This document shows, piece by piece, positions 22,318 to 30,475 of a DNA stretch of 64,000 nt. The stretch is from a bacterium (GTDB lineage: Bacteria; Patescibacteriota; Patescibacteriia; UBA9934; GWF2-40-263). Every line of letters starts with the position of its first letter. The stretch's first letter is position 1. The DNA is taken from positions 1,356 through 65,355 of the forward strand of contig JAGVQB010000045.1 in the NCBI GenBank assembly GCA_020051955.1. The letters are read 5' to 3'. The translations under genes were made by a program, and so were the position numbers. Below the pieces are notes generated by a model, which ran no database searches, was not told where the DNA came from, and saw nothing but the letters and a program-made list of their open reading frames with translations.

Positions 22318-23823
22318 TTTCTTTTTCTCCTTGAGGCGGGAACGAAAAACCCATCTGCACACAATTGTGCGGATGGGGGGTTGGGTACTTATATTCCAGC
22401 ATGATTTTTTGATCCCGTCAACGGGGCTTCTGTGGAAAACTAAAAACATTCGGCAGTGCCGAATGTTTTGAAACCAATTCTCTACTTTGTGATTGCAACG
22501 TGTATTCCCTTGCTCGGTCTTTAAACCGAACTGTTCTGATCAATCTGATTGATCTCGACCTAGGAACATGTCCCGACCCTTAGGTCAGGAAAAATCCCTA
22601 AAAAGGAGGTGATCCACCCACAGCTTCCGCTACGGGTGCCTTGTTACGACTTCGTCCCTATCATTGATCCCACCTTCCGCCGCCCTACGGCGACGTTCGG
22701 GTGTTACCAATTCTCTTGACGTGACGGGCGGTGAGTACAAGACCCGAGAACGTATTCACGGCCACGTGGCTGATTGGCCGTTACTAGCGATTCCAACTTC
22801 ATGAGGTCGGGTTGCAGACCTCAATCTGAACTGAGACCAGTTTTGTGGGATTAGCTCCGGATTACTCCTTGGCTGCCCATTGTACTGGCCATTGTAGCGC
22901 GCGTGTCGCCCTGGACGTAAGGGCCATGCTGATTTGACGTCATCCTCGCCTTCCTCCCGGTTGCCCGGGCAGTCTCCTGCGACACTTATAACGCAGGACA
23001 AGGGTTGCGCTCGTTACCCCACTTAAGGGAACAGCTCACGCCACGAGCTGACGACAACCATGCAGCACCTAGACAGCACCTTCGAAAGCGGCCCACCTTT
23101 CGGCAGGCTTGCAGCTGTCTTTCAAGCCCAGGTAAGGTTCCTCGCTTACCATCGAATTAAACCGCACGCTCCACCGCTTGTGCGGGTCCCCGTCTATTCC
23201 TTTATGTTTTAGTCTTGCGACCGTACTCCACAGGCGGAATGCTTAATGCGTTAGCTTGGTTAACCGGCTCCGAGAGGGTCGATACTCCCGAAACCTAGCA
23301 TTCATAGTTTACGGCGTGGACTACTGGGGTATCTAATCCCATTCGCTCCCCACGCTTTCGTCCCTCAGTGTCAGAAATGTTCTAGCAGATTGCTTTCGCC
23401 TTTGGTGTTCTTGCCGATATTAACGCATTTTACCGCTACACCGGCAATTCCATCTGCCTCTCCCATTCTCTAGTCTTGCAGTATCACTTACAGACTTCAG
23501 GTTGAGCCTGAAGATTTCGCATATGACTTGCAAAACCACCTACGGACCCTTTACGCCCAATAAATCCGGATAACGCTTGAGGTCTCTGTATTACCGCTGC
23601 TGCTGGCACAGAGTTAGCAACCTCTTATTCATTAGGTACCGTCATTTGTTCGTCCCTAATAAAAGCTCTTTACGACCCGAAGGCCTTCATCGAGCACGCG
23701 GCATTGCTCCGTCACACTTTCGTGCATTGCGGAAGATTCTTGACTGCAGCCTCCCGTAGGAGTCTGGGCAGTGTCTCAGTCCCAGTGAGCCGGGCCACGC
23801 TCTCACGCCCGGTACCCGTCGAA

Positions 23824-23855
<32 letters not shown>

Positions 23856-24004
23856 GATAGGACATAGGCCCCTCTCGAACCGGCGGACCTTTCAATGGGA
23901 ATGACCGAAGTCCCCCCATCAATATCGTGTATTAGCCATCGTTTCCAATGGTTGTTCACGAGTTCGAGGTAGGTTACCAATGTGTTCCGCTCCCGTTTGC
24001 CACT

Positions 24005-24437
24005 AACAGTAGTCAGACATCGGATGTCGGTAGTTGGAATTATTTCCAAGATTCACGGAGACGATACAATTGCTTGCCAACGACTGTGTATTCTTCGATC
24101 AGTTTGTTACTGAACGTTGAATCCATAGCGCCGACAGCTACTGCGTCGCTTATGTGACTTTTGATTTCATTACAAGATCCAAGTGACCTTGTTAGATAAT
24201 TCCTGAATTCGGCAGCACTCCTTCCGTACCCTTCGGCTACATTCGCGTGAATTGAATTTGCTGATCTGCAAATCTGATCACGCAGATGCCAAAGATGAGA
24301 TGGAAACGCTTTCGTGATACTCACTACTTGTGGGTACAATTTCTTTGATCGTTGGAAAACGTCAAGCCTTTCGTATCCGTTCATATATGTTGAGTATATC
24401 ACTGCCGACTACTGACCTCTGAAGTCCGACTACTGCT
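24005..24437 (-). other. 16S intervening sequence: extended helix-6 stem enclosing an ORF
   Basis: ~35 bp imperfect inverted repeat 24005-24039 / 24403-24437 made of heptamers. Confidence 0.9.
24040..24384 (-). CDS. Four-helix-bundle protein (23S_rRNA_IVP / TIGR02436-like)
   Basis: YERLDVFQRS...FP...LRDQICRSANSIHANVAEGYGR...F..YL..SLGSCNE. Confidence 0.93.
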   Translation of the reverse strand: MNGYERLDVFQRSKKLYPQVVSITKAFPSHLWHLRDQICRSANSIHANVAEGYGRSAAEFRNYLTRSLGSCNEIKSHISDAVAVGAMDSTFSNKLIEEYTVVGKQLYRLRESWK

Positions 24438-24462
24438 CGTTCAACTTGCATGCCTTAGACAT

Positions 24463-24499
<37 letters not shown>

Positions 24500-24715
24500 A
24501 AAAAATGCTTTGGGTCTTACGACCTCAAAGCTCTGTTGTTTTGTGACTTTTGTCACTACTAGGAATAACGTTGCAATCACACAGTAGATAATTGTGTGAT
24601 TTGGTAGATTGGTTTGTTTAGTTGTAAAGATCCAGCAAGAGACATTTTTAAAACCCTCGCAGGGCCTCCCCCGGGAGAGCTTCTTTTGGAACGTATATTT
24701 GTAACTTGCGGGCGC

Positions 24716-28146: not shown

Positions 28147-28175
28147 TTGACAAAACGGTCAAAATATGATATTCT
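28147..28175 (+). promoter_or_regulatory. Sigma70 promoter upstream of the 28.4-29.9 kb unit
   Basis: TTGACA-N17-TATTCT with extended TG. Confidence 0.65.
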
Positions 28176-28234
28176 TGTCTCTTCTGTTTATTGTGAGAAG
28201 GGAGGAATTCCTCAATTGAGTGACTTATTTCCTG

Positions 28235-28294
28235 GTAGCCGCAGGCTTTAGCCTGTGTGCGATTCACGCGGCGCAGGCTGTAGCCTGCGGCCGC
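28235..28294. repeat. GTAG-type REP doublet (REPIN-like)
   Basis: GTAGCCGCAGGCTTTAGCCTG ... CGCAGGCTGTAGCCTGCGGCCGC inverted pair. Confidence 0.75.
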
Positions 28295-28381
28295 CACGGA
28301 AAGAATCGGCCGTTCAGTTGAGGGATTCATCCCCTGCCGTTGCTCATCCCGAGCGCGGTGCAAGTAAAGAGGTACGAGAAG

Positions 28382-28897: not shown

Positions 28898-29023
28898 ATG
28901 GACGACGACAGGGAGCTCATGAGGGATCTGGTGGAGATCTGGGTGGTAACCACCCTGTTTCAACTCCTCCTTTTCTGTGGGGCGTACCTGATAGGGTACT
29001 TCTTCACCGGGTTCTCGAGTTGA
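28898..29023 (+). CDS. 41 aa single-pass membrane peptide (below ORF-track cutoff)
   Basis: GGAGG RBS; MDDDRELMRDLVEIWVVTTLFQLLLFCGAYLIGYFFTGFSS; same codon style as the upstream gene. Confidence 0.65.
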   Translation: MDDDRELMRDLVEIWVVTTLFQLLLFCGAYLIGYFFTGFSS

Positions 29024-29029
29024 GTCCAC

Positions 29030-29902
29030 GGAACCTGGAATGCGTCCGCGTGGCGCCAGGTTTCAAATCAACGCGGCGGATCGCAGTTCACCAGATCCGA
29101 GTATTCGCAACCGAGCTCGTAGGTGGAACGGGCTCAAATGGAGTAGACATGGGCTACAGCTAGAAGGAAGCGTCTGGAGGTCGTAAGACCAAGTCACGGC
29201 CAGGCGTGGATACATAAGTGACCCGGCGTACTATGCGAGGTTGCCAGACGTGAGAGTTAGGAACGGAAAGGGACAGAAAGCCCGAGTACAAGTACGAAGC
29301 GATACCGTCTGAAGCAATCACTCGAGAGCAATCTCGGGACGTCGGGGAGTGGTAACACTCCGAAGGGTCGCGCCAAAGCATGGGAGCCGTTGACAGTGAA
29401 GGCTCAAAGGGCTGGCAACCCAATCTGTCAAAAAGGCCTTGTGAGTTTGGCCTCCTGTCTACGGACGGGTCAAATGAACTCTCCTTGGTTGTGGCGGTCA
29501 ACAACCCGTTTTCAATCCGCGTTTTAAGAAAAACGAGGACTTTGGTCGGCAGAGTTCGACACGGCGCGCGAGACGTTCTTGCGCCACTTGCCAGCGGTGT
29601 ATCACTGGCAGACTCGCATTTCGCGAGCGGGGAATTGTGTGGCGCCCTTAAAGGCCACTTTGCAGAAGGAGGTCAGAAATGACTTACCCGTTGCTGTTCT
29701 ACGATGTTACAAACGCGCTTTCCCCTGAGCGCGCCAAAAAACCAAAGGTAAGGGGGTAAGGATCTCGGCCGTCAACGTGACAAAACGGCCGGGGATCCTA
29801 ACGATACTTTCCCCGGTCGCTTGGGCGCCTCCCGCGTCCATCACGTTGCGTTCCGGGGTCCTCTACCGAAATGCTGATTGTTACATCGCGTACCAATCGG
29901 CA
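29030..29902 (+). ncRNA. Candidate large structured ncRNA (~830-870 nt), class unassigned
   Basis: Closing stem 29030-42/29849-61; nested domains; GNRA and UNCG hairpins; three loop-distal complementarities; no convincing ORF. Confidence 0.75.
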
Positions 29903-29921
29903 GGTCAGTTGAGAGAAACAT

Positions 29922-29948
29922 AAAACACGTCTTTATGAGACGTGTTTT
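29922..29948. terminator. Bidirectional intrinsic terminator
   Basis: AAAACACGTCT-TTATG-AGACGTGTTTT between the RNA candidate and the convergent relE. Confidence 0.8.
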
Positions 29949-29949
29949 G

Positions 29950-30216
29950 TTATAGATGGTGATAGATATCTTTGCGATGGCAGATTCTGTGTAGAATAAT
30001 TTTTGATCGATCGAATGTATAAATTAAACGGTAGTCACCCACACGTAAGCGCCAAAGTGGCGGACGTGTGAACCCAGAAAGTTTTTTAATGTCGAGCGTC
30101 GCATTGATTGGGTTTAGTTGAAGTAGCTTTGCGATCACGTCTGCCTTAATTTGTATTTGGATCGGAAGACTACGAAAATCCTTCGTGAATTGCCGAGTCA
30201 CGACGATCTCTCGCAT
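29950..30216 (-). CDS. RelE/ParE-family toxin
   Basis: TRQFTKDFRSL...IKKLSG...WRLRVGDYRLIY...HRKDIY. Confidence 0.9.
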   Translation of the reverse strand: MREIVVTRQFTKDFRSLPIQIQIKADVIAKLLQLNPINATLDIKKLSGFTRPPLWRLRVGDYRLIYTFDRSKIILHRICHRKDIYHHL

Positions 30217-30219
30217 ACT

Positions 30220-30414
30220 TTAAACGAGCTCGCGAAGGGAACGCACTGTTCGCGTCTTTCCTTGCGTGGCTTCTTTAATAGAACGTCGCAACCCCTTTTG
30301 AAACACTGGGTCAAAATCGCCAGACCTCTCAAGGATATCTTCCACTAGATTTGCAAGATTCAAACTTGCACGAAAGATGCGGCGTAATTTTAGTTGAGTT
30401 ACAGTTTGGTTCAT
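30220..30414 (-). CDS. Cognate antitoxin (putative)
   Basis: Small ORF directly upstream of the toxin, C-terminal RRSIKEATQGKTRTVRSL. Confidence 0.7.
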   Translation of the reverse strand: MNQTVTQLKLRRIFRASLNLANLVEDILERSGDFDPVFQKGLRRSIKEATQGKTRTVRSLRELV

Positions 30415-30475
30415 ACATACGCAAGTTAACACGGAGTAAAGCTAGGAGTCCAGTTTTTTGTTGATTCCTTTCTCC

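Follow-up and report, generated by a model that had tools for sequence, protein, structure and literature searches.

The interval 29030–29902 of the window, i.e., of the 64,000-nucleotide stretch of Patescibacteria DNA analysed here, raises the question of what is encoded in a segment that the preliminary description had read as one closed, nested RNA of about 850 nt, undescribed, rich in pseudoknots, and without a convincing ORF. What stands of this reading is a large RNA with several pseudoknots, not described before and encoded on the + strand of a genome-reduced bacterium; the single closed 850-nt nested architecture is not supported. All motifs listed for the interval are present where they were placed, and the complementarity between 29030–42 and 29849–61 amounts to 12 of 13 positions (checked by eye). 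The + strand folds better than 20 of 20 dinucleotide shuffles (z −4.1), the − strand reaches z −2.8, and for the core alone z is −2.7 with none of 100 shuffles as good. Together with the covariation below, we regard it as nearly certain that a structured RNA at this locus is real.

In a sequence-only alignment of 14 homologues, 13 helices with 64 pairs are 96.3% paired, and two-sided changes occur in 43 of the 64 pairs. None of 500 shuffles reaches this level of covariation, a figure that does not amount to a probability because the structure was derived from the same sequences, which are kin; slid controls are 27–40% paired. Changes on one side yield G·U pairs, which fits an RNA read from the + strand. 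Four helices cross others, namely PK1, Y across X, PK3, and PK4. The hairpins predicted at 29321, 29346, and 29454 all show covariation in the 14 homologues, as does the predicted pseudoknot 29390–96/29425–31, with a two-sided change in three of three counted pairs. In 18 divergent cores, helices X and Y are 96% and 98% paired, respectively, and 15 positions are invariant, several of them unpaired. On this divergent alignment PK1 is 52% and P4 31% paired, and neither is counted as support since their strands are out of register by eye. The core is non-coding by its indels, 123 of 127 of which are not multiples of three, and 11 of 14 cores have no open frame. The conserved unit is a core of ~200–250 nt (29167–29383) with a 3′ domain, surrounded by variable modules, and it defines a new class of large structured RNA of ~550–850 nt including the modules (Table 1). 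The purine-rich flanks of P1 could form tandem G·A pairs, and the arm on P4 appears to bear a loop-E-like motif (~29260–63 with 29291–95).

Table 1 Features of the RNA and its surroundings in the window
Feature	Position	Strand	Remarks
Sigma70-type promoter	28147–28175	+	Putative driver of array and RNA; 10/12 consensus, extended −10
Array hairpin H1	28210–28323	+	Upstream boundary; outer stem of 7+4 bp, inner stem beyond an internal loop
Array gene, 156 aa	28379–28849	+	Signal-peptide-like N-terminal stretch (by eye); no family; homologue in G076 array
41-codon hydrophobic ORF	28898–29023	+	No family
5′ module	29078–29135	+	Two hairpins, complementary loops ~29089–93 with 29121–25; subset of family-f1 copies; by eye, not counted
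SD1 and uORF1	29140–43 (SD1); 29149–63	+	M-G-Y-S-stop; stop ends 3 nt before P1 anchor
P1 and PK1	29167–29222	+	P1 29170–77/29200–07; PK1 29193–97/29218–22; covariation helices 1–2
Conserved core	29223–29383	+	Helix X 29223–29/29339–45 crossed by helix Y 29231–36/29378–83; covariation
P4 in core	29245–50/29306–11	+	Carries an arm
Further core elements	29321; 29346; 29365–74	+	Two hairpins; short conserved loop
3′ domain	29384–29481	+	Helices 29384–88/29401–05, 29409–11/29419–21, 29434–38/29449–53, 29454–69; covariation helices 8–13
3′ domain pseudoknots	29390–96/29425–31; 29443–47/29477–81	+	PK3; PK4
Hairpin-rich linker	29482–29667	+	Variable
SD2 and micro-ORF2	29668–72 (SD2); 29679–759	+	MTYPLLFYD...; 26 codons in window
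H-type pseudoknot	29715–29756	+	29715–18/29729–32; 29721–26/29751–56; by eye
3′ module	29760–29859	+	Hairpins A 29760–98, B 29811–58; complementary loops 29773–80/29841–48; refolding into one rod possible
Array hairpin H2 (degenerate)	29860–29914	+	Downstream boundary
Terminator-like hairpin	29922–29948	.	No + strand gene after it
ParE/RelE-type toxin gene and ORF	29950–30432	−	Toxin 29950–30216, convergent; 70-aa ORF upstream of toxin

The elements that had been proposed to close the whole fold are not retained. The 3′ strand of the long closing stem matches the 5′ flank no better than shuffled flanks in 13 of 14 copies (51–196 of 200 shuffles as good; 18 of 200 for the window itself), and in 12 of 14 copies it pairs better locally, in the window with 29811–16. 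In place of the pseudoknot 29085/29475, residues 29477–81 pair with the loop 29443–47 (helix 12, 90% paired, two of five pairs with two-sided changes). The domain closer 29070/29517 lacks conservation as judged by eye, and for the closer 29563/29729 the homologues instead show pairing of 29729–32 with 29715–18 as a local pseudoknot stem. The loop–loop pairing 29773/29841 recurs in homologues by eye only and is uncounted. Overall, the listed hairpins stand, as do two of three predicted pseudoknots. A hairpin at 29670, described as a tetraloop hairpin, overlies the Shine–Dalgarno (SD) and start-codon region of a micro-ORF. The absence of a convincing ORF holds for long ORFs, but two conserved micro-ORFs (29149–63 and 29679–759) lie inside the RNA, which is therefore not purely non-coding.

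Bacteria have only a few RNAs that are both large and highly structured, and most of the recent ones (OLE, ROOL, GOLLD, and raiA) still lack an assigned function. No Rfam 15 covariance model reaches its gathering score in the interval, none matches within 29030–29902 at E ≤ 10, and the cores of eight divergent loci are also without a match. The raiA motif RNA (RF03072) is similar in its core of ~200 nt, two core pseudoknots, many invariant nucleotides, loop-E-type motif, and single locus (PMC10861870), but it occurs in a different phylum, and its model (P1–P6, pk1, pk2, 51 conserved positions) finds nothing at E ≤ 1 in five carrier genomes. OLE, ROOL, and GOLLD (RF01071, RF03087, RF02032) share with the new RNA a length of 550–850 nt, multiple pseudoknots, complementary loops, and an accessory distribution, and as for these families, two copies lie downstream of a tRNA-like element (by eye). 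Unlike them, the new RNA matches none of their models and was not found in viral contigs. The GOLLD model has no match at the locus and gives one fragment (E = 0.4) in G056, on another contig; a ROOL search is negative in five of five genomes with the control genome also silent, and the Rfam scans of 29030–29902 and of the eight core loci contain no ROOL match. A conserved dummy ORF with a pinned stop is not described for these families in the portions of the literature consulted. The tRNA-like element, with a T-arm, acceptor-like ends, and an extra arm, belongs to a long non-coding leader in G168 and G236, where it precedes the core by ~250 nt (L085, reverse strand, ~995–1085; L086, ~1165–1255), and ARAGORN at its default score makes no call. 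Other distant copies also have long structured-looking leaders of 250–800 nt between promoter and core (L102, ~650–1440; L041, reverse strand, ~2930–2700), which may hold further RNA domains. Among the titles and abstract openings searched, no description of the RNA or of the array around it was seen. The main text of 10.64898/2026.10.21.760802 does not name Patescibacteria, CPR, or Uhrbacteria, and its COMPASS database and supplements may hold a matching cluster.

As had been noted at the outset, the defining features of RNase P, tmRNA, and group I and group II introns are absent. Like tmRNA, the new RNA is pseudoknot-rich, has a short internal coding segment, and is proposed to act on ribosomes, but it has no tRNA-like domain or CCA end, and its ORFs have their own SD and start codon. 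The window genome, a 1.0-Mb assembly, carries a normal tmRNA, an RNase P RNA (on C17, not matched by search model R3), and a complete 23S rRNA, each on another contig; the CR-I/CR-V P4 pseudoknot that identifies RNase P is not found in the new RNA. A group I intron has P4–P6 placed between P3 and P7 of its P3–P7 pseudoknot and interrupts a gene, with which the 1–2 nt between the 5′ strands of X and Y and the intergenic site do not fit, and a P7-type bulged-A G–C guanosine site is absent among the invariants, judged by eye against the consensus. Neither a group II domain V nor D1–D4 model matches 29030–29902 or the eight divergent loci. The alternative of a new cleaving, splicing, or ligating ribozyme, with folding or activity gated by the upstream ribosome, we consider unlikely. 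The compact double-pseudoknot core with its invariant, partly unpaired positions, the tandem cores in two genomes (G021 and G029), and the strand order of the X/Y crossing, which is that of HDV-like P1/P2, would agree with such an activity. HDV-like ribozymes are nested double pseudoknots with a P1.1 and an invariant catalytic C in J4/2. There is however no invariant C before the Y 3′ strand (L087 has a run of A), nor a G–C site with a bulged A resembling that of group I P7 or of domain V (by eye). Furthermore, the RNA never interrupts a gene, occupies a single locus, and matches no Rfam ribozyme. The tandem duplicates lie at L080 1146–1733 (G029) and L084 1484–2058 (G021); the upstream core is the more diverged, and the outer arms of the neighbouring hairpin H differ there.

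By blastn, the element is found in 13 of 73 genomes of the window's family, and sequence-only models extend this to 16 of the 73 (counted without G095). With model R2, matches were obtained in 18 of 151 genomes sampled from the order, in three of 150 from the rest of the class, and none of 150 from the rest of the phylum, and a search with R3 added one carrier, G469. The total is 29 cores, 24 from 22 Patescibacteria genomes in six families and five distinct metagenome copies. Since all three search models are without base pairs, more divergent members may be missed, and with sampled genomes the absence from other groups is not established. A pattern search of a genome collection gave ten matches, titled Uhrbacteria (six), Patescibacteria (one), Parcubacteria (one), and Gammaproteobacteria (two); because one of the last (L026) adjoins an smc gene as in the window, both Gammaproteobacteria titles are probably wrong. 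In viral and plasmid sequences, the first pattern had no match and the second had two that were negative with profiles, blastn against phages and against plasmids gave one short chance piece each, and a search with two array proteins found no copy of the RNA. Two candidates were dropped as chance matches: G095 (E = 0.003), a partial model match in coding-looking surroundings (by eye) not recovered by R2 or R3, and L034, a pattern match. The core tree has good support on three of 25 branches. The RNA is kept in genomes of ~1 Mb that are under strong shrinkage pressure.

The first of the two micro-ORFs, uORF1, is positioned with respect to P1 by its stop codon. An SD-led start codon is found shortly before P1 in 23 of 27 cores and an SD-led ORF of at most six codons (typically 2–5) in 19 of the 27, counts that are not independent, with 17 of the 27 cores being close kin and the anchors placed by eye; by comparison, such an ORF occurs at 1.2% of positions drawn at random from the genome and in 4.8% of flanks after shuffling. 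In all 19, the end of the stop falls between −3 and +2 nt relative to the anchor, the starts spread over −10 to −20, and the peptides (MGYS, MDLK, MPIF, MR, MQKD) show no similarity. Two held-out homologues, L116 (M-D-Q-stop) and L041 (three codons), which are in no model and were found by models beginning at the anchor, obey the stop rule by eye. Four of the 27 cores lack uORF1 (L018, L007, L085, and the second core of L080), and in another four it reads on into P1; uORF1 is thus not obligatory. That ribosomes load at uORF1 is very probable. About 6 nt separate the stop from the first pair of P1, so that, from the geometry of the ribosome, P1/PK1 would be located at its mRNA entry channel during termination. 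A structure at the entry channel ahead of the ribosome is the geometry of recoding pseudoknots. In L019 and L029, an additional SD-led micro-ORF, MKPFY, identical in both, is present ~130 nt upstream of uORF1.

The second micro-ORF, ORF2, differs in that its peptide is selected. It is SD-led in 18 copies, mostly with an aromatic motif of the [YF]P-x-x-F type, and stops after 7–14 codons (about nine), in most homologues at the codon matching 29709–11; in the window this stop is lost and the ORF extends to 26 codons. Pairwise codon differences are synonymous rather than non-synonymous by 40:12 in a group of seven copies and 45:10 in another group of six. Third positions account for 40 of 46 first- or third-position differences and 40 of 58 of all differences in the first group, and for 50 of 60 in the second. 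This excess of synonymous differences indicates purifying selection on the peptide. In many homologues an H-type pseudoknot follows 2–6 nt past the stop (by eye). G056 and L041 have a similar peptide ahead of the core, and in several standalone copies ORF2 was not found. TnaC-type arrest peptides are short aromatic peptides with a stop-proximal structure, and ORF2 probably encodes an arrest or sensor peptide rich in Phe, Tyr, and Trp.

Two SD-led micro-ORFs, one of them rich in aromatic codons, and a bistable 3′ module would also be expected of a riboswitch or attenuator acting on ORF2 or on downstream array genes, with ORF2 sensing the host's amino-acid supply, and array genes do follow the RNA in several genomes. 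This cis-regulatory role is nevertheless quite improbable. The downstream genes share no function, and no same-strand gene follows the RNA in G010, G063, or the window, where a terminator and a convergent ParE-type toxin–antitoxin (TA) pair leave nothing downstream to regulate; the 70-aa ORF upstream of the toxin gene is probably the antitoxin, as inferred from its position. The location of ORF2 ahead of the core in G056 and L041, and its apparent absence elsewhere, are also difficult to reconcile with cis-regulation. In the STAB-SD of cryIIIA and the ermC leader stall, a ribosome is likewise held close to the 5′ end, on an SD or a short ORF (PMC3997798), but leader stabilisers and arrest peptides serve a downstream mRNA, whereas the micro-ORFs of the new RNA bracket a conserved tertiary core without a fixed downstream gene.

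A folded RNA carrying a dummy gene with a pinned stop suggests that RNAs of a new kind cooperate with the ribosome. The mechanism that we favour, taken as a whole, is a serious possibility, to be held tentatively: a trans-acting RNA, made as its own transcript and not as a leader, would hold a ribosome at its 5′ edge. A 70S ribosome would initiate at SD1, make 2–5 codons, and terminate with P1/PK1 at its entry channel. Parked there, it would shield the core from the 5′–3′ exonuclease RNase J, which is encoded in five of five genomes tested, and would be brought against the invariant tertiary surface of the core. The core would then most likely grip or pause the ribosome and so act on translation in trans, and ORF2 with its downstream pseudoknot would repeat the design of uORF1 with a peptide that matters. 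The RNA could store or sequester ribosomes, or sense the translational state, and would be an accessory trait of these episymbionts. In an extended form that we regard as possible, if on the unlikely side, the class would be one of ribosome-capturing RNAs: the dummy ORF would recruit and the pseudoknot stop a ribosome, the RNA-only core would clamp it or act on it chemically, and the selected aromatic micro-peptide would serve as sensor or cofactor; Patescibacteria would thereby have a means, based on RNA, of storing or gating their ribosomes between hosts, and the RNA would have spread partly via a new integrase-free, hairpin-delimited cassette array. HPF, a hibernation factor, is encoded in 70 of 73 genomes of the family including 16 of 16 carriers, and the RNA therefore does not replace it. 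A pinned stop would also result if all that is required is to keep the ribosome from melting P1.

A second explanation for uORF1 is that it is a mere 5′ stabiliser, given that a roadblock by an SD or ribosome stabilises RNA in bacteria with RNase J (PMC3997798). The core would then be an RNA-only scaffold or oligomer similar to OLE, ROOL, GOLLD, and raiA, with the loop–loop modules as intermolecular bridges and no action on the ribosome. This is consistent with the presence of RNase J, the complementary-loop modules at both ends, and the patchy occurrence of the RNA as an accessory single-locus element with no constant protein partner, and RNA-only nanocages held together by kissing loops have been described (10.1101/2024.12.08.627333). 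We nonetheless consider it doubtful. An SD without start codon already suffices for stabilisation (PMC3997798), and roadblocks can act from afar, but the stop keeps to within 5 nt of one position, often 100–250 nt inside the transcript; the selected ORF2 peptide with its stop-proximal pseudoknot is left unexplained. The stop codon pinned against the first pseudoknot, and the second, selected micro-peptide of the same design, constitute a built-in functional clue that is absent in OLE, ROOL, GOLLD, and raiA, and they make the ribosome-interaction hypothesis directly testable. The function of the RNA is a proposal, but the class itself, undescribed and equipped with a selected micro-peptide as well as a conserved micro-ORF that would position a ribosome, is, as judged from sequence comparison, real.

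Profile searches and local alignments show no complementarity or homology to rRNA. The idea that the RNA derives from or mimics domain I of 23S rRNA, thereby titrating uL24/uL4, arose from a resemblance and then failed both alignment and profile tests. The best local alignment of the window core is indeed with nt 297–539 of E. coli 23S rRNA, with 12 identical bases at its start, but its score of 49 compares with 45.6 ± 4.7 for shuffled sequences (29 of 100 as high), and the other 22 cores align elsewhere. Because profile searches of four 23S genes have no match, the covarying structure differs from the known fold of that region, and the genome already has a complete 23S rRNA, this origin can be given hardly any credence.

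In 14 of 16 carriers of the family the RNA occurs in the interval between rpsP and smc, in most of them as one unit of a variable one-strand array of small genes without known function. At the end of each unit are a small structured module and a hairpin H that looks alike from unit to unit, with TA-like genes on the opposite strand. The units are ~350–900 nt long, number up to 7–8 per genome, and are near-identical within a genome (also L059–L066 and L105–L110); shared units swap order between genomes (c47; c23/c37), and G004 and G008 have the array without the RNA. This hairpin-delimited array without an integrase is a second undescribed system. Standalone copies (G010, G063, G201, G168, G236, G469, and L041) have terminator-like ends, unrelated neighbours, and their own promoters, which are like the sigma70-type promoter of the window. 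Arrays of integron attC sites are similar in that their same-strand units end in hairpins resembling one another, with outer boxes of the AAC/GTT type, that unit order is shuffled, and that TA genes lie on the opposite strand; R″/R′ heptamer boxes with AAC/GTT are found in most family-f1 hairpins H and are altered in G021, G029, and H2 of the window. An attC site has 2–3 extrahelical bases and an unpaired central spacer (PMC2727003). In contrast, H has no extrahelical bases, its spacer is partly paired, and many sites are shorter than 57 nt; in the 39 hairpins H, positions 9–11 and 15–19 pair in mirror register with no bulges required. Nor was an IntI found: the two tyrosine recombinases of G000 reach 121 and 142 bits against TIGR02249 (cut-off 265), match as catalytic-domain fragments only, and are on other contigs.

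The H-bounded units, the order swaps, the opposite-strand TA genes, the arrays without RNA, and the patchy distribution could indicate a selfish or mobile RNA cassette of an integron-like array. However, the rpsP–smc position shared by 14 of 16 family carriers suggests vertical descent with loss, no H is seen (by eye) around G010, G063, G201, G168, G236, and G469, and neither an integron integrase nor a viral or plasmid copy was found, which makes a mobile cassette highly improbable. In the 39 hairpins, G·U pairs (20) and A·C mismatches (21) are about equal in number, and the bottom strand folds better in 22 of 39 (as RNA) and 24 of 39 (as DNA). As there is no G·U bias on the transcribed strand, H could be a hairpin formed in DNA or a site for RNase III, an enzyme encoded in five of five genomes tested; an array-bearing genome has two full-length RNase III genes (G004:C5).

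Of 28 array proteins scanned, only one belongs to a clear family. This dNMP-kinase-like P-loop protein is often the first array gene (phrog_139, E 4e-14; L062:12096–12656 and homologues in six genomes). A further family has two beta-barrel-like halves (L059:3124–3612 and L062:8397–8837), with weak Atlas leads, all below 0.9, to the Hfq/Sm, CotA/YwrJ, and RimP-C folds (Sm/SH3-like). It is a possible RNA-binding partner, though G004 encodes a member as well and does not have the RNA. Elsewhere in the window, the 16S rRNA gene (22602–24505, − strand) has an insertion of ~410 nt near its 5′ end that encodes a 120-aa four-helix-bundle ORF (PF05635, 24040–24402), and the 23S gene on its separate contig is ~1 kb longer than the model.
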